In this document: positions 3,112 to 50,541 of the stretch, piece after piece
How the letters are laid out: each line of letters begins with the position of its first letter
Numbering within the stretch: the first letter of the stretch is position 1
Assembly: GCA_947627805.1 (NCBI GenBank)
Contig: CANQXB010000001.1
Coordinates: forward strand, 24,836-88,835
Direction of reading: 5' to 3'
Length of the DNA stretch: 64,000 nt
Source of the DNA: an uncultured Bacilli bacterium
GTDB taxonomy: Bacteria; Bacillota_I; Bacilli_A; RF39; UBA660
Translations under genes and position numbers: made by a program
Notes under the pieces: generated by a model
The model's input: only the letters and a program-made list of their open reading frames with translations
Databases searched by the model: none
What the model was told of the DNA's origin: nothing

Positions 3112-5589
3112 ATGGTGAGAGGAGATCCCAATAACGAAGAAATGAAATTAAATTTCGTTGCTAAAGTTTGGGATGAAAAAGCAAATGATGGTCAAGGTGC
3201 ATATAAACCTATATATGTTGCGCCAGATGCTACCTCTAACACTAGAGGAGATGTTTATTTATCAGATGCTGTTGATGGTACGGATAACGCGGAGACTGGT
3301 GTAACAGCAGCAACCCCCGCGGCTGTAAAAGCAGTGAATGATAAAATTGATGATAAAGTATCTAAATCGGATTTAGAAACACAGTCTATTAAAAGTTCTT
3401 TGAACCCAGATGTAACGGATACTCAAGATTTAGGCACAGAAGAACTAAAATGGAATGATATTTATGCAAATAAATTCCACGGTGAATTAGACGGAAATGC
3501 GACTACTGCTTCAACTTTAAAAACTCCTCGTAATATTGGTATTAAAAATGGAGAAGCTGAAGAATCAAAACTTCCTTTTGATGGCGCAGGAGATATAACT
3601 ATTCCACTTAATAGTTTAGATGCTAGTACCTTGACAGTAGGAGAAGTTCCTCTAGCACGATTACCAAAAGCAGCTTTAGAGAGATTAGTTATTGTTCAAG
3701 ACTTAGATGCAATGTATGATTTAACTACTGATACTGTGCAACTTGGAGATACAGTTCAATTAGAAGATACAAAAGCTATGTATTATGTAGTTGATGAAAG
3801 TAATCTTGATAATGAAAAAGGTTACGTTGAATATGTTGCGGCTACCGCCGCAAAAGCAACAGAAGCAGATAAATTAAGTGATGCAAATGTAGGTTCATCT
3901 AGCCATCCTGTTTATTTTAGTGGTGGAAAACCAGTTGCTACTTCTGGTACTACTGGGAGCACTAGCTGTCCTGTTTATATATCTAATGGTGTGCCGACAG
4001 GAATTAGTGCTTTAAGTGTATCATATGGTGGTACAGGTGCTACAACTGCGAATGATGCTTGGACAGCACTTGGTGGCGGCAATATTGGCAAAATGAATTC
4101 TACTGGTTCTACTTCTTATTTCTTAAGAGCAGATGGTCAATGGGCTGCTCCACCTACGAGTAGCGGCAGTACTACAGATAATGACTATAGAGTACAACAG
4201 GCATATAGCAGTAACTCTAGTAGTTATCCGATTCTTTTAAGACCAGTTACTTCAGGTACTACTACTACTACTACTACTGCATATTATAGTGGAGTTAGCA
4301 TTACTCCATCTACAAATACTATTAATGGTAACTTAAGTGGTACTGCTTCTTATGCTACGTCCGCGGGAACTGCTAGTGGTTTATCTAGTACATTAGGTGT
4401 TTCTTATGGTGGTACAGGAAATACGTCATTGACTAGTAATCAAGTAGTTTTAGGTAATGGTAGTAGCGCATTAAAAACAACTAGTGCGACAGGAACAGGT
4501 GCTCTTTATCGTACTAGTACAACTGGAGCACCAAGTTTTGGCGTCTTACCAGTCGCGCAAGGTGGTACAGGTGTAACTAGTATTTCTGAGTTACAGAATT
4601 TAGTTGGAGGCGGAGGTTCTTCTTCTGATGTTAATGTAACGCAGAATGCGACAACAACTAATGCTAGTTATCCTATTTTATTAAAAGGTACAACTACATC
4701 TGGTTCATATACCGGTACTGTGTATTTTGATAGTGGGGTTACTCTTAATCCTTACACAAATATGATTGCAGCTAACATTAGTGGAAATGCGGCGACTGCA
4801 ACAACTGCTACTTCTGCGACAACAGCCACTACCGCAAGCGGTTTATCTAGCACATTAAGTATTAATGGCGGTGGTACTGGTGTGACTACTCTTACCTCTA
4901 ATCAAGTAGTCCTAGGTAATGGAACTTCTGCTTTAAAAACTACGTCAGCATCAGGAACTGGTGCATTATATCGCACAGGAACAACAAGTGCTCCTAGCTT
5001 TGGCACACTAGGCGTTTCTTATGGTGGTACAGGTACGACAAGTTTAACAAGTAATCAAGTTGTGCTTGGTAGTGGAACTGGAGCTCTTAAAACAACTAGC
5101 GCATCTGGTGTAGGTATATTACATCGTACTGTCGCGACTTCTGCTCCTACTTTTGGACCAATAAAATGGGAAACTGTAAATGTTACTTATAATACTACTA
5201 GTTCATTTGGTGGTACTAAACTTAAAGTGTTAACAAGTCCCAATGGTGAACAACGTGCTTATGTGTGCGGATGTAAAGCACTTAATATTCTTAAAATAGG
5301 TGTTCGTTTTGGTCTTGCTTCTGGTACAACTATAACAGCAGGGACTTGGACATTACTCACTTTACCAACAGGATGGCGTCCTACTTCTAAACGAACGTTA
5401 TATGATTTTTGTGAAATACAAGAAATGCATGCCCCAGAGGCACAAAGAGCACATTATTTAGGTAAATTTATAGTATATATTAATACCAATGGTACAGTAC
5501 AAGTATATATTCAATCAGCACGTAGTAATGTACAAGAAATTGCAATATATCAATTTCCTATAGATACTAGTCAATGGGGATTAACTTAA
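3112..5589 (+). CDS. tail fibre protein with internal Gly/Thr/Ser-rich repeats
   Basis: 825 aa; four or more copies of the module VSYGGTG..T.LTSNQVVLGNG.SALKTTSA.GTGALYRT; RBS AAAGGAGG. Confidence 0.7.
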   Translation: MVRGDPNNEEMKLNFVAKVWDEKANDGQGAYKPIYVAPDATSNTRGDVYLSDAVDGTDNAETGVTAATPAAVKAVNDKIDDKVSKSDLETQSIKSSLNPDVTDTQDLGTEELKWNDIYANKFHGELDGNATTASTLKTPRNIGIKNGEAEESKLPFDGAGDITIPLNSLDASTLTVGEVPLARLPKAALERLVIVQDLDAMYDLTTDTVQLGDTVQLEDTKAMYYVVDESNLDNEKGYVEYVAATAAKATEADKLSDANVGSSSHPVYFSGGKPVATSGTTGSTSCPVYISNGVPTGISALSVSYGGTGATTANDAWTALGGGNIGKMNSTGSTSYFLRADGQWAAPPTSSGSTTDNDYRVQQAYSSNSSSYPILLRPVTSGTTTTTTTAYYSGVSITPSTNTINGNLSGTASYATSAGTASGLSSTLGVSYGGTGNTSLTSNQVVLGNGSSALKTTSATGTGALYRTSTTGAPSFGVLPVAQGGTGVTSISELQNLVGGGGSSSDVNVTQNATTTNASYPILLKGTTTSGSYTGTVYFDSGVTLNPYTNMIAANISGNAATATTATSATTATTASGLSSTLSINGGGTGVTTLTSNQVVLGNGTSALKTTSASGTGALYRTGTTSAPSFGTLGVSYGGTGTTSLTSNQVVLGSGTGALKTTSASGVGILHRTVATSAPTFGPIKWETVNVTYNTTSSFGGTKLKVLTSPNGEQRAYVCGCKALNILKIGVRFGLASGTTITAGTWTLLTLPTGWRPTSKRTLYDFCEIQEMHAPEAQRAHYLGKFIVYINTNGTVQVYIQSARSNVQEIAIYQFPIDTSQWGLT

Positions 5590-26305: not shown

Positions 26306-26956
26306 TTAAATTCCTTGTCCAACAGCATCAATAAGATCTGATATAATAAGATCGAGTTGCTCAACTTGTGAACGTTGCATTTCTGCAACTTTTTTACCTG
26401 GACCAAGATGTTTAGCTACAATATCATTGATGCGGGGAGCCCAGGTAGTGCCAAAATTCCCTCCCGCAGCTTCCATGATCTTAGAAACAAGATCATTAAA
26501 GGTTGACATTAACTGGTCAAAGTTAGGAGTTTCTTTAATTTCATAAGCTGTAGTGCGGGAGTCTGTAACAAATTCTCCATTATGCGTTTCAGCTTCTTTA
26601 TCAATAGCCTCTCCAATAGCATCAACAAGATTTTGATATGTAAACTCAATAGATGGCGGAGTAAAACGAAAACGACTACCAGCTACAAATCGCGGGGTTC
26701 CGCGCATATATAAGGTGGTGTGAGTTGTGCCATCTTCGTCTTGTACAGGATGCGCATAACCAATAATATCAGACATGCGGTCTACAATAAGACGAGGACG
26801 CTTATCAAGAGTTGGAACAATTTGGTTATACTCTTTGCCGTTTTCATCAGTAAAGACTTTGTCCTCAGAGTGAGAAATCATTACTAAACCATATCCCATT
26901 TGCGGGATACTGCGCAATGTTTCATCAAATTCTTTTGCGGCGAGTTTGTAACCCTT
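26306..26956 (-). CDS. exon 3 (217 aa) of a split P-loop recombination-type ATPase gene (RecA-like/AAA_24, Sak4-like)
   Basis: Continues the exon 2 frame after the intron; exact 3' splice site within GGATAACATAATTG|AAGGGT is uncertain by a few nt. Confidence 0.6.
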   Translation of the reverse strand, partial: KGYKLAAKEFDETLRSIPQMGYGLVMISHSEDKVFTDENGKEYNQIVPTLDKRPRLIVDRMSDIIGYAHPVQDEDGTTHTTLYMRGTPRFVAGSRFRFTPPSIEFTYQNLVDAIGEAIDKEAETHNGEFVTDSRTTAYEIKETPNFDQLMSTFNDLVSKIMEAAGGNFGTTWAPRINDIVAKHLGPGKKVAEMQRSQVEQLDLIISDLIDAVGQGI

Positions 26957-28045
26957 CAATTATGTTATCCTAAAGGCTTTTTATCCTTTAGTTCTTATAC
27001 TTCTTATTCGTATAAGTTCAGCATATCTTTTTATCCTTTTGCAAAGGATAAGCAGTCTCGTGGAAAATTATTTCATTATAAGTTTTTGGAATTTTTCAAA
27101 TTTTCTTTTCATATAAATTTTTGGATTATCTTTATAAAGAAAATCTAAAACGGTTTTAGCTTTATTCCCATAGCAATAAAGTCTATATAAAGGAATTCTC
27201 CTATTTTCACCAAATTGAGAAGTTAAATTAAGTTGAATATTGATAGTCTCTAATAAGTATTGCTGAATTTCAGTTAAAAAATGTAAACAAGTAGAATCTA
27301 ATTGAAAAACTAAAGAAGTCGCTTTTTTAACAGAACCATCGCCATCAAAAAACCCTCTTATGTAATGACGAATTAAATGATAATCAATACTATCTAAAGG
27401 AACATGGAAATTTTTATGATTGTAAGTTTTATTTGGAGGTAGGTGGTATCGTTCAATTAATATTTTTTTAAGATTTTTATCTTCTATATAAAGTTTACAA
27501 TTTTCATATCCTCGTTGTGTCACATAAAATTTAATTGGTCTAGTTAATCCCATTGCTTCTCTAATTTTTTCTAGCACTTCAGCATCTTGTTTTCGTAACT
27601 CAATATATACTTGATTACTTCGTTCTGCTACACATCCATCAGCTGCAATTAAACCTAATGTATATGCTAATTCTTCAGACTGATGATAGAAAAAATCTTC
27701 ATTAAAATTATATACTCTGCAATGCTCTCCCGGTTTTCTCGTATCAACATTGTGTTTTGCTAAAATTTTTCTTAATCTTTTTTCTCCAATGCTAAAATGT
27801 TTACATGTCTTTTTAATAGAATTAGGTTGTAAATAATATTCAACAACCTTTAATTCATTTACTTCTACAATTTTACCCATTTTACTCCTCCCGAGTCAAA
27901 TGTTTTACTTATAATGTTTAAGTTTTCTATGCGTTGCACGTGACTAAACTTTTGCATTTAGCCTTCCGTTCTGATTCCCCTCTCAGGGTTCCAGCTTTTA
28001 CTGCTTTTTTCAAAGAATATTACTATTCTAAGCGGCAAGTAATTT
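26957..28045 (-). mobile_element. group I intron 2 in the ATPase gene, carrying a LAGLIDADG homing endonuclease
   Basis: Starts T|AAATTACTTGCCGCTTAG like intron 1; shares TTGAAAAAA, GAAGGCT, ACG(T/C)GCAACGCATAGA and the 3' block TGTTATCCTAAAGGCTTTTTATCCTTTAGTTCTT with intron 1; covarying P9-like stem. Confidence 0.7.
27068..27880 (-). CDS. LAGLIDADG homing endonuclease, intron-encoded
   Basis: LGLIAADGCV and IRGFFDGDGSV motifs; N-terminal HTH-like region; own RBS and start codon. Confidence 0.8.
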   Translation of the reverse strand: MGKIVEVNELKVVEYYLQPNSIKKTCKHFSIGEKRLRKILAKHNVDTRKPGEHCRVYNFNEDFFYHQSEELAYTLGLIAADGCVAERSNQVYIELRKQDAEVLEKIREAMGLTRPIKFYVTQRGYENCKLYIEDKNLKKILIERYHLPPNKTYNHKNFHVPLDSIDYHLIRHYIRGFFDGDGSVKKATSLVFQLDSTCLHFLTEIQQYLLETINIQLNLTSQFGENRRIPLYRLYCYGNKAKTVLDFLYKDNPKIYMKRKFEKFQKLIMK

Positions 28046-28315
28046 ACCGTAGGGTATATCACCTATAGTTGCGGCACCTTCATTATTGCAAATATATTTT
28101 TCACATAAATCATAAGCTATGTCTGCCGTATCCACAATAATATTTTGAAACTTTTGATGAGCTTCTTCATTATTTAATTGCTTCAAAACCTTTTTAAAAT
28201 CAGACCATTTTTTAATAGGTTGCGCAAGAATCCCAGGGATAGCCAGGTATCCGACTTCAAAAGCTAAAAGCAAAGCCTTGGGAAATTGACTGGCGATGGT
28301 AGTTTTTCCGGTTTT
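28046..28315 (-). CDS. exon 2 (90 aa) of the split ATPase gene
   Basis: TGKTTIASQF completes Walker A GAPK|TGKTT with exon 1; the tracked ORF 28028..28318 begins on GTG and ends on an intron-encoded stop. Confidence 0.6.
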
Positions 28316-29348
28316 CACATTGTTATCCTAAAGGCTTTTTATCCTTTAGTTCTTGCGGTTTCCCGCAAGGTCAGCATATATTATCATCTATTTAATATAA
28401 CTAAATAGAGTCCTTGACTCGTGGATTTATTATATTCTTGAATTAAGCGCTATAAGATATTTGTTATATTTTCTTTCTAGCTTTGGAGTATTAATATTAT
28501 AAATATCTTTTAAGAATTGCAAAGAAGGCGTAGTTGATAGTTCTAAACTATATAAGTCTCTTGATGTATGATAAAGATACCAAGGATAATCTGTAAAATC
28601 TTGAATTTCTTCAAATAATCCTTTTGTCTTTGAAGTAATTTTTACTTTCCCAGCAGTATAACTCCCATCTCCATCATAAAAACCTTTAATAAAACTTAGT
28701 TTAAATACATCTGGGATATTCTTCATTGAAATATTTTTGTAAGTTTTATCAGGAACAATGCTATAATTTTCTAAATCTTCTTTAATTTGTTTAGAAGAAA
28801 ATTCTAATTCTGCTACAGGATATTTACTTTCAACAGTATAATGTTTAATTGGAGCTTCAATTTGAGCTTTTTCTTTGAATTCAATTAACCATTGTTCGTC
28901 TGCTACTTGCAATCCAATTTTTATAGCATTACGATTTTTTCTTATTGTGCCATCTGCCGCAATAAAACCTAAATAATAAGCTGATGTATCATTTAATGTA
29001 TGAAAATAATTATGATTAACTTTGTATCCTCTTTTCATATTTTCAATAACACACTGTTCATGACGATCTCTAATATGAACATTATAAGAATTAAACATTT
29101 TTTTCAACTTATAGGTAGAAATATTAAATTCTCTTTCACAAGCAGCTAAACTATTGCCTTCTTGATAAAATTTTATAATATTACTGTGGTTGACCATTAC
29201 AGGCAAGCATCCTTTCTTCAAGTTTCAAAATCTATGCGTTGCGCGTGTTATAACTTTTAAATTATAACTTCCGCTCGTGTTAGCAGCTAAGCCTTCACGT
29301 TTTTTCAAGGATTTGCTAGTTTAATCGCTCAAACTAGGCCCAAAATTT
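28316..29348 (-). mobile_element. group I intron 1 in the ATPase gene, carrying a LAGLIDADG homing endonuclease
   Basis: 5' splice site after U (GCGCCT|AAATTTTGGGCC) with a 4-bp P1 to IGS GGGC; terminal G in AATGTG|AAAACC; P2 hairpin CTAGTTT..AAACTAG. Confidence 0.7.
28430..29221 (-). CDS. LAGLIDADG homing endonuclease, intron-encoded; paralogue of 27068..27880
   Basis: LGFIAADGTI and IKGFYDGDGS motifs. Confidence 0.8.
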   Translation of the reverse strand: MKKGCLPVMVNHSNIIKFYQEGNSLAACEREFNISTYKLKKMFNSYNVHIRDRHEQCVIENMKRGYKVNHNYFHTLNDTSAYYLGFIAADGTIRKNRNAIKIGLQVADEQWLIEFKEKAQIEAPIKHYTVESKYPVAELEFSSKQIKEDLENYSIVPDKTYKNISMKNIPDVFKLSFIKGFYDGDGSYTAGKVKITSKTKGLFEEIQDFTDYPWYLYHTSRDLYSLELSTTPSLQFLKDIYNINTPKLERKYNKYLIALNSRI

Positions 29349-29435
29349 AGGCGCACCGTATAACAAAACCGTATAGCCGCAGAGATCACGAGAAATTTCA
29401 TGCGGCTGGATAGACAGAATATCAATATCAGCCAT
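29349..29435 (-). CDS. exon 1 (29 aa) of the split ATPase gene
   Basis: RBS AGGAGG then ATG; MADIDILSIQPHEISRDLCGYTVLLYGAP ends in the first half of Walker A; a stop follows 4 codons into the intron. Confidence 0.55.
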
Positions 29436-42435: not shown

Positions 42436-42510
42436 TGGTGCCCCTACAGGAACTCGAATCCCGATTCTCAGATTAGAAGTCTGACGTTCTATCCATTGAA
42501 CTATAGAGGC
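42436..42510 (-). tRNA. tRNA-Arg (anticodon TCT), CCA encoded
   Basis: GCCTCTA-TA-GTTC/AATGGATA/GAAC-G-TCAGA/CTTCTAA/TCTGA-GAAT-CGGGA/TTCGAGT/TCCTG-TAGGGGC-A-CCA cloverleaf folded by hand. Confidence 0.8.
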
Positions 42511-46800: not shown

Positions 46801-46895
46801 TGGTACACGCGGAGGGACTTGAACCCCCATCGTGCGCTAATCTGGCGCTTATCTCGGGTATAAACCGAGCGCTCTGCCCATTGAGCTACGCGTGC
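46801..46895 (-). tRNA. atypical 95-nt tRNA with a 24-nt variable arm and apparent anticodon UAU
   Basis: GCACGCG-TA-GCTC/AATGGGCA/GAGC-G-CTCGG/TTTATAC/CCGAG, then variable arm with GCGC/GCGC stem, then GGGGG/TTCAAGT/CCCTC-CGCGTGT-A-CCA; identity uncertain. Confidence 0.6.
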
Positions 46896-49768: not shown

Positions 49769-49864
49769 GTAAATTTTATATTGAATCAGCTTTGACACTT
49801 GAAGTCACAGTTTGTGATTTCAAATTTAAACCTATCTCTCATTGGTAAAAAACAATACCTATAG

Positions 49865-49939
49865 TCTGCCTAGCAGGATTTGAACCTACGACACCTTGCT
49901 CCCAAAACAAGTGCGCTAACCAAACTGCGCTATAGACAG
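49865..49939 (-). tRNA. tRNA-Pro (anticodon TGG), CCA not encoded
   Basis: CTGTCTA-TA-GCGC/AGTTTGGTTA/GCGC-A-CTTGT/TTTGGGA/GCAAG-GTGTC-GTAGG/TTCAAAT/CCTGC-TAGGCAG-A; flanked by inverted repeat TACCTATAG / CTATAGGTA. Confidence 0.75.
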
Positions 49940-50249: not shown

Positions 50250-50541
50250 ATTTATTCCTTTCTTTTGGAATAAAAATTTTTTTCTGGTGGAGCTGCTGAC
50301 TTACGATAGCCAGGTCCTAACATACTAATTACTAAATCCTTAATATAATCTAAAAGATAAAATTAGTTAATAAATGTGCCTTTTAATGATTCTTCCTCGC
50401 ACGTAAAAGGCATCGGTGCGAGGTATAGGCTTATGCTGCCATTGCAAAATTAAATTTGTCAGTTAATTTTTTAAAGGTGATTACAGATTTAGCTTTCATA
50501 TCCTAGTCGAATCCTTTCAGCCCCTTTCTCATTATATTAAT

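Follow-up and report, generated by a model that had tools for sequence, protein, structure and literature searches.

A Sak4-like ATPase gene interrupted by two putative mobile group I introns of a single family that carry LAGLIDADG endonuclease reading frames

We analysed a stretch of 64,000 nucleotides from an uncultured Bacilli bacterium (assembly GCA_947627805.1, contig CANQXB010000001.1, positions 24,836 to 88,835 of the forward strand), hereafter referred to as the window, in which a gene for a Sak4-like P-loop ATPase lies in three pieces separated by two inserts of about 1 kb. Coordinates are given in window numbering, and the gene and both inserts are on the minus strand. Exon 1 (29435-29349), which follows an AGGAGG ribosome-binding site (29449-29444), comprises 29 codons from the ATG at 29435, encodes MADIDILSIQPHEISRDLCGYTVLLYGAP and ends GGT GCG CCT (G-A-P), the first half of a Walker A motif. 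Exon 2 (28315-28046) comprises 90 codons, starts AAA ACC GGA AAA ACT ACC and ends CCC TAC GGT, giving the protein span K-TGKTT ... DIPYG, and exon 3 (26956-26306) starts AAG GGT TAC and supplies 216 codons plus the stop. Joining the exons yields the sequences GCGCCT/AAAACCGG at junction 1 and TACGGT/AAGGGTTAC at junction 2 (slashes mark junctions here and below); junction 1 rebuilds the Walker A motif (GAPK/TGKT) and junction 2 rebuilds IPYG/KGY, and an intact Walker A (GxxxxGK[ST]), in the form GAPKTGKT, exists only in the spliced arrangement. A preliminary description, made from the letters of the sequence, had already placed the exons at these coordinates and recognised the completion of Walker A across junction 1; it gave the protein as 336 residues, whereas the joined exons encode 335, the number 336 being that of the codons including the stop.

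The spliced protein behaved as a single, complete member of a known family. Pfam AAA_24 matched it in one stretch over profile positions 3-195 of 195 (E 3.6e-42; 144.9 bits against a cut-off of 27), and phrog_124, annotated as 'Sak4-like ssDNA annealing protein' (ssDNA, single-stranded DNA), matched with an E value of 1.6e-51, AAA_24/Sak4 being among the families that the preliminary description had proposed for comparison. Uninterrupted homologs of 333-336 residues number in the thousands in a large protein database, the best at 88% identity, and those aligned (67-88% identity) show no gap at either junction (LLYGAPKTGKTT and IPYGKGYKLAAKEF). When annotated phages were searched by tblastn, residues 4-329 were matched in a single piece in Enterococcus phages (54% identity), and yorG of SPbeta was likewise matched in one piece (31% identity). 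A megablast search of the same annotated phages with the 3.3-kb region returned zero matches, and no structure in the PDB gave a meaningful sequence match to the spliced protein. We conclude that the interrupted gene is a predicted Sak4-like/AAA_24 P-loop ATPase gene; a role in ssDNA annealing or recombination is suggested by the name in the family annotation.

Intron 1 (29348-28316; 1033 nucleotides, AAATTTTGGG...ACAATGTG) lies between codons 29 and 30, at the P-loop site that we call site A, with a U before it and its terminal G at 28316. The reading frame of exon 1 hits a stop four codons into the intron (K F W A stop). P1 is formed by GCCU of the exon (29352-29349) and the guide GGGC (29341-29338), with a U.G pair at the splice site, and a possible P10 by UUUU (29345-29342) and AAAA of the 3' exon (28315-28312). 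The R element GCAACGCAUAG (29242-29232) holds the 5' strand of P7, GCAUA (29237-29233), and is followed by the helix P7.1 (GAUUU/AAAUC), the 5' strand of which is at 29232-29228 and the 3' strand at 28428-28424. Within the P7.1 loop lies a LAGLIDADG open reading frame (ORF), HEG1 (29197-28430), which encodes 255 residues from the ATG at 29197 (alternative start, TTG at 29221) and the stop codon of which abuts the 3' strand of P7.1. HEG1 contains the motifs LGFIAADG and IKGFYDGDG and matches Pfam LAGLIDADG_3 with 35.6 bits (cut-off 22.5; E 1.1e-8) and phrog_4645 with an E value of 1.9e-35. The 3' half of the ribozyme (28424-28316) consists of CCACGAG, P3' (CAAGGA, 28416-28411), P8, the S element with P7' (UAUGC, 28378-28374), P9 (CUUGCGG/CCGCAAG), P9.1 (CUAAAGG/CCUUUAG), the tail GAUAACAAUGUG and the terminal G. 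P3 of this intron is UCCUUG/CAAGGA; AAAUC/GAUUU had also been considered as P3 and was ruled out by compact relatives of the intron, in which those strands form P7.1.

Intron 2 (28045-26957; 1089 nucleotides, AAATTACTTG...CATAATTG) lies between codons 119 and 120 at the PYG/KGY site (site D), again with a U before it and with its terminal G at 26957, and the frame of exon 2 hits a stop five codons into it (K L L A A stop). Here, P1 pairs CGGU of the exon (28049-28046) with the guide GCCG (28036-28033), with the U.G at the splice site, and a possible P10 pairs CUU (28039-28037) with AAG of the 3' exon (26956-26954). P7.1 (GAAAA, 27927-27923, with UUUUC, 27067-27063) encloses HEG2 (27880-27068), a LAGLIDADG ORF of 270 residues with the motifs LGLIAADG and IRGFFDGDG, preceded by a strong ribosome-binding site, GGAGGAG (27891-27885). 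HEG2 matches LAGLIDADG_3 with 52.0 bits (same cut-off; E 8.5e-14) and phrog_4645 with an E value of 2.2e-47, and has a weak match to an archaeal LAGLIDADG structure (PDB 2dch, E 0.0013). The 3' half of the ribozyme (27063-26957) has the same parts in the same order as that of intron 1: CCACGAG, P3' (ACUGCU, 27056-27051), P8 (UAUCCUUU/AAAGGAUA), S with P7' (UAUGC, 27025-27021), P9 (CUUAUAC/GUAUAAG), P9.1, the tail GAUAACAUAAUUG and the terminal G.

Both introns thus display P1 with U.G, a possible P10, P2 to P9.1, the P3/P7 pseudoknot, an extra helix P7.1 and a terminal G, and in both every helix is intact; the blocks ACG(C/T)GCAACGCATAGA and AAGAACTAAAGGATAAAAAGCCTTTAGGATAACA are also present in both. 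Relatives were sought in IMG/VR with a 30-nucleotide 3' block, which gave 45 exact matches, and with the R-like element, which gave 60. The approximately 60 related elements retrieved in this way from viral metagenomes comprise roughly 45 unique cores and include 28 compact copies, which have no ORF after R, and the order of elements in the 5' part of compact copies is P1, P2, P3, an A-rich J3/4, P4, an AA/AA internal loop, P5, P6 and P6a. After P6a, family members continue with R (GCAACGCAUAG, the 5' strand of P7), P7.1, CCACGAG, P3', P8 and S (AAGAUAUGCUGA, P7'), and they end with P9, P9.1 with its invariant loop AUAAAAAG, GAUAAC, 3-7 further nucleotides and the terminal G; a G after the GAUAAC tail is found in all aligned members. 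In every copy with an ORF after R, the ORF lies inside the P7.1 loop with its stop codon abutting the 3' strand of P7.1. Three IMG/VR contigs (L002, L031 and L008) show another arrangement, with a compact P7.1 loop and an endonuclease-like ORF that ends just upstream of the guide and P2, and the position of the ORF therefore varies across the intron family.

We then aligned 20 cores from which the ORF had been deleted and counted pairs on the comparative structure. Pairing was found in 94.1% of the cells, compared with 73.7% in shuffles (0 of 500 reached the observed value) and 32-47% when partners were slid by 1-3 columns, and 38 of the 55 pairs showed changes on both sides. P4/P5, P9 and P9.1 were paired in 100% of cases, P6 in 98%, P7.1 in 95% (with four of its five pairs covarying), P6a in 92% and P8 in 87%. 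P3 was paired in 53% of cases at the first register and in 76% when shifted by one column, because some sequences were offset by one column in the alignment; in a test that did not depend on the alignment, the strands of a given intron formed at least 5 base pairs in 93% of cases, as opposed to 12% for mismatched partners. P7 is invariant within the 20-core set, and evidence for it came from an exchange: all 7 of the 7 loci with the S variant UACGC have GCGUA instead of GCAUA in R. The compensatory hairpin change between the two window introns that had been pointed out in the preliminary description (CTTGCGG/CCGCAAG versus CTTATAC/GTATAAG) is there and corresponds to P9, which lies just upstream of the shared 34-nucleotide 3' block and not inside it. 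The TTGAAAAAA and GAAGGCT blocks listed in the same place do occur in both introns, but at structurally non-homologous positions: the TTG plus AAAAAA stretch makes up the end of P3 and J3/4 in intron 1 and stands before P3 in intron 2, and GAAGGCT belongs to P4/P5 of intron 1 and to P6/P6a of intron 2. An initial MAFFT alignment of the complete introns, in which the 5' halves were misaligned, wrongly implied homology of these blocks and was rejected.

Further, the guide changes in step with the exon in relatives, at four insertion sites. The combinations of exon end and guide read GGCU/GGCC, GGAGCU/GGCUCC and AGAGU/GCUCU in relatives at site A; GUCU/GGAC and GGCU/GGCC at site B; CCGU/GCGG, CUGU/GCAG and GGAU/GUCC at site C; and GGGU/GCCC and UGGU/GCCA at site D. 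The possible P10, between the nucleotides directly 5' of the guide and the 3' exon, has longer examples at other sites, as judged by inspection. Splice sites derived from tblastn coordinates were ambiguous or wrong for several loci (among them L054, L075, intron 2 of L092, and L094) and were read by eye.

Natural alleles of the gene bear directly on the nature of the inserts. One contig, L107 (ENA ERZ27249337 NODE_23629, 1-1669), encodes a protein 98% identical to the spliced window protein and has an exon 1 that is 100% identical to that of the window. It carries intron 1 at the same site, identical at 316 of 317 positions apart from a clean deletion of 716 nucleotides (window 29209-28494), which removes the endonuclease ORF and leaves an intron of 317 nucleotides. 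A thermodynamic fold of this natural 317-nucleotide intron, made without the comparative model, recovered all helices except the pseudoknotted P7, with a minimum free energy of -81.9 kcal/mol (z = -4.8). L107 is without intron 2: CCTTATGGC and AAAGGTTAC are continuous, and the empty site D reads TATGGC/AAAGGT (CCTTATGGC^AAAGGT), without the U needed for P1. Neither intron is present in L108, L109 or L110; in L108, which derives from a metagenome-assembled genome (MAG) of an uncultured Bacilli bacterium and is the sole MAG matched in the genome-contig scan, the intron-less sites read TATGGTGCGCCA^AAGACGGGAAAA (P-loop) and ATACCATACGGT^AAAGGCTATAAA (PYG/KGY). Because these empty-site alleles are known, the intron boundaries are fixed to within 1-3 nucleotides (shared A residues), and only the register of the coordinates given above places a U ahead of the intron and a G as its last nucleotide.

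The comparison with L107 also speaks to the history of the gene. Over exons 2 and 3, 71 of 921 nucleotides differ between L107 and the window but only about 7 of 306 residues, and, because these differences are mostly synonymous, the interrupted gene is under purifying selection. Six of the 71 differences cluster within 19 nucleotides around the empty intron 2 site. The 127 nucleotides made up of exon 1 and the first 40 nucleotides of exon 2 show no difference from L107, compared with 7.7% in the rest of the gene, an identity that, by our own arithmetic, has a chance of about 4e-5 at the 7.7% rate. This pattern fits a recent event in which intron 1 was transferred along with its flanking sequence.

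With regard to the origin of the two introns, HEG1 and HEG2 are 30% identical to each other over 208 residues. Among all fetched loci searched by tblastn, HEG1 is closest to the endonucleases at the P-loop site in L094 (58%), L084 (53%) and L092 (46%), and HEG2 is closest to those at the PYG/KGY site in L078 (39%), L092 (37%) and L075 (36%). Nowhere in the family alignment are two ribozyme cores less similar than those of the two window introns (61%). Because each endonuclease is nearest to endonucleases at its own site and the cores are so dissimilar, the two introns represent separate site-specific lineages that arrived independently. We therefore rejected duplication of one intron in situ, one of the two origins proposed in the preliminary description, as each endonuclease is closer to same-site endonucleases elsewhere than to its neighbour; the other proposed origin, homing into the same gene, agrees with the kinship of same-site endonucleases and with the 61% similarity of the cores. 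The 34-nucleotide 3' block that is identical in the two introns is best read as conserved across the family and not as a trace of recent duplication.

Taken together, these data indicate that a Sak4-like gene in the window is interrupted by two mobile group I introns that belong to one family and both carry a LAGLIDADG endonuclease ORF, a reading to which we assign a probability of roughly 0.93. In its core, this is also what the preliminary description had proposed, and the gapless homologs, the natural alleles and the covariation within the family bear it out. On this reading, the whole gene would be transcribed as a single pre-mRNA, and ribosomes coming from exon 1 or exon 2 would stop four to five codons inside each intron. 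Each intron would fold with P1 formed between the end of the exon and the guide, with the U.G wobble at the cleavage site, and with a core made up of the P4-P6 and P3-P9 domains, the P3/P7 pseudoknot, the extra P7.1, and P9/P9.1. It would then remove itself by two guanosine-initiated transesterifications ending at the terminal G, and splicing would restore GAPK-TGKT (Walker A) and PYG-KGY to give the 335-residue protein. The predicted endonucleases would cut an intron-less allele at the cognate site (codons 29/30 or 119/120), and repair would then introduce the intron along with adjoining exon sequence (homing).

Several points weigh against this reading. Splicing and endonuclease activity are predictions from the sequence. 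None of the Rfam group I models matched the window, whether at the gathering threshold or at E <= 1, so that the check with the Rfam covariance model suggested in the preliminary description turned out negative; RF00028 likewise gave no match to the compact relatives at gathering, nor at E <= 10 on one stretch of 351 nucleotides. There is no evident P7.2, a helix that many phage IA2 introns typically have; a conserved, single-stranded CCACGAG stands in its place. The preliminary description had credited each intron ORF with a ribosome-binding site of its own, which is correct for the strong site of HEG2, but HEG1 has only a weak and distant Shine-Dalgarno sequence (AAAGGA about 12 nucleotides before the ATG at 29197). 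Further, in the covariation analysis, the ORFs were cut at positions chosen by us and the structure was derived from the same sequences, and the percentages of pairing are thus somewhat inflated; the shuffle and slide controls answer this circularity only partly. Because Rfam gives no match, the case for group I rests on anatomy and comparison. In the Rfam scan of the compact-relative loci, RF00028 did match a different, canonical intron in L008. Its failure with the present family reflects a limit of the model and is not evidence against the introns.

We also considered whether the gene could be functional, or have ceased to be so, without splicing of group I introns. Some split phage ribonucleotide reductase or topoisomerase genes give rise to separately translated pieces that assemble. 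The three pieces of the present gene might be such a case, the inserts being free-standing endonuclease cassettes and the conserved tail AGGAUAAC...(G/U)UG acting as ribosome-binding site and start codon. Gene callers do start the piece comprising exons 2 and 3 at the GTG of the intron end (P0002), AGGA lies 7-8 nucleotides before the GTG at 28318 and the TTG at 26959, and assembly of split phage genes at the protein level is documented (PMC3045599). However, the first interruption lies within the Walker A loop and would leave a piece of 29 residues, and a P-loop made of two chains is not plausible; the approximately 230 non-coding nucleotides flanking each ORF are kept as covarying helices, including a P1 with the exon; and the ORF-less version at the same site in L107 would be senseless for a plain endonuclease cassette. 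We therefore regard an unspliced, fragmented gene as very unlikely and attribute the calling of separate ORFs exactly at the intron ends (28318 and 26959) to the intron tail, which mimics a ribosome-binding site plus start codon. An intervening element of another kind that leaves the gene functional receives next to no weight, nothing specific speaking for it beyond the existence of other such interruptions. In-frame stops four to five codons into each insert exclude an intein; a group II intron is opposed by the absence of a reverse transcriptase, of a domain V-like element and of any group II match in the Rfam gathering scan; and the length of the inserts, about 1 kb, greatly exceeds that of any known translational bypass. 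The U.G-containing P1, the terminal G, the P3/P7 pseudoknot and the R/S-like elements are, moreover, specific to group I.

A decayed state, in which the introns no longer splice and this phage has the ATPase gene only as a pseudogene, would agree with the missing Rfam match, with the weak ribosome-binding site of the intron 1 ORF and with the loss of the ORF in the relative L107. Yet all helices are intact in both introns, the exons are free of frameshifts and stops, both endonuclease ORFs are of full length with both LAGLIDADG motifs, and the exons differ from those of L107 overwhelmingly by synonymous changes (71 nucleotide versus about 7 amino acid changes). Sak4-type proteins are, in addition, reportedly needed for replication in related phages (Neamah et al. 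2017, as cited in PMC12403621), which also counts against decay. We consider this scenario highly improbable and retain the reading of two mobile group I introns in a Sak4-like gene.

The interrupted gene is surrounded by genes for YorF-like and YorH-like proteins, DnaB, RecJ and PolIII alpha, an order shared with the intron-less relative L108, and it belongs to an SPbeta-like replication module (YorF-YorG-YorH-DnaB-RecJ-PolIII alpha). The order is that of SPbeta (yorF-yorG-yorH...), the interrupted gene being the yorG homolog; unlike the window gene, yorG of SPbeta is uninterrupted. SPbeta-type phages are known for introns in DNA-metabolism genes; among the matches to the present intron family, there were no SPbeta-like Bacillus phages. 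In L108, a weak GIY-YIG match (3470-4333), possibly a free-standing endonuclease, lies two genes upstream of YorF. Directly after the interrupted gene in the window, there is a hairpin that resembles an intrinsic terminator (GCCCGC-UUCG-GCGGGC with a run of U after it; 26291-26267, minus strand), which gave rise to weak, spurious small RNA matches in Rfam.

Elsewhere in the window, approximately 20 kb from the introns and within what appears to be a phage genome, we observed a full-length ROOL RNA (RF03087; 48418-49011, minus strand; 324.7 bits, E 5.7e-74) and a gene resembling that for transfer-messenger RNA (tmRNA) (RF00023; 50285-50524, minus strand), the latter at 49.8 bits, which narrowly exceeds the gathering threshold of 47; ARAGORN made no tmRNA call at 50285-50524. 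Three tRNA genes, all on the minus strand, were found: Arg-TCT (42436-42510), Ile-TAT (46801-46895) and Pro-TGG (49864-49939). The Ile-TAT call, at 95 nucleotides, is unusually long for a tRNA and may contain a long variable arm or an insertion.

Most of the loci retrieved by the R element are Sak4-like genes with this intron family, in which insertions recur at five or more sites. In window-protein numbering, these lie at about 29/30 (P-loop), 67/68, 92-96 (DT/ADIAYD), 115-121 (PYG/KGY) and 160-171. Some Sak4-like genes in IMG/VR have two or three introns (L054/L089/L097, L091, L092, L049/L050 and others), and in L092 the same two sites are occupied as in the window, with the P-loop intron 3 nucleotides upstream (after GCU). 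Cultured phages of Clostridioides (phiCD211-like), Staphylococcus (6ec-like) and C. perfringens, as well as crAss-like phages, also contain the 3' domain of the family. In these phages the domain mostly lacks an annotation, or it falls within a capsid or tape-measure gene. In phiCD211 (L112; 2501-2578 and 2602-2867), the depositors annotated a canonical Intron_gpI 24 nucleotides downstream, next to the tape-measure gene, and not the family member. L008 has a family member close to the canonical RF00028 intron mentioned above (3300-3640 and 4606-4821), and the S-P9 region of that canonical intron is nearly identical to that of the present family.

Endonucleases carried by introns are well known in phages, as are phage genes with several introns, such as orf142 of Twort, with three, and polymerase and terminase genes of Bastillevirinae, with two or three (PMC11878797). 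Exon skipping is reported for Twort orf142; in the present gene, loss of exon 2 (270 nucleotides) would leave the reading frame intact. Like the phage introns of subgroup IA (T4 td, nrdB and nrdD, Twort orf142 and those of Bastillevirinae; PMC3984707, PMC11878797), the family described here has an extra helix between P7 and P3', an R/S-like core and an ORF in a peripheral loop, is inserted in conserved codons of a DNA-metabolism gene, and occurs several times per gene and sporadically among close relatives. The extra helix points to subgroup IA, and, with only one such helix, the assignment is uncertain. Unlike the phage IA introns, the family is not scored by RF00028; P7 is GCAUA/UAUGC and not of the usual ACUA/UAGU type; there is a single evident P7.1 helix; and the L9.1 loop AUAAAAAG is invariant and followed by the GAUAAC tail. 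Phage introns mostly carry GIY-YIG, HNH, PD-(D/E)xK or EDxHD enzymes (PMC3984707), and one LAGLIDADG case is listed for Bastillevirinae; the ORF of the present family is, unlike that of most phage introns, LAGLIDADG. HEG1 and HEG2 resemble the double-motif monomeric LAGLIDADG enzymes (PDB 2dch) in having two motifs with acidic residues and scores above the LAGLIDADG_3 cut-off, but, unlike enzymes of the 2dch type, they have an extra N-terminal region of about 60 residues with the look of a helix-turn-helix; their sequences have diverged far from any solved structure, and they fall into a phage-specific cluster, phrog_4645.

A 2025 paper reports that the RF00028 and GISSD models can miss phage variants (PMC11878797), and RF00028 was also the seed of the largest intron database (PMC11835236); the family is probably absent from RF00028-seeded databases. 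In open-access text, we found no report linking introns with Sak4-like/AAA_24 genes. As elements, the two introns of the window are of an ordinary type, two further group I introns with LAGLIDADG genes. What the analysis adds is at the level of the family: a widespread phage intron lineage that is undetected by Rfam, with LAGLIDADG in P7.1 and a clear preference for conserved Sak4-like motifs. It is conceivable, at slightly less than even odds in our estimation, that the two window introns represent a large, uncatalogued group IA-like lineage (P7.1 with the LAGLIDADG gene, GCAUA/UAUGC, AUAAAAAG, GAUAAC, invisible to RF00028) that has radiated over at least five conserved sites in Sak4-like genes and is also present in capsid, tape-measure and other genes of Firmicutes, Clostridioides, Staphylococcus and crAss-like phages.

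The practical consequence for annotation is that gene callers split a replication/recombination gene of the essential type into three ORFs, and a dedicated covariance model would correct many such calls in records of phages and metagenomes. Further, surveys based on RF00028 under-count phage introns, of which the approximately 60 members of this family are a concrete example. The set of related LAGLIDADG nucleases with different, predictable target sites may also serve engineering. Overall, the empty-site, ORF-minus and doubly occupied alleles of the Sak4-like gene constitute a natural system for endonuclease site switching and for the co-adaptation of the intron and its guide.

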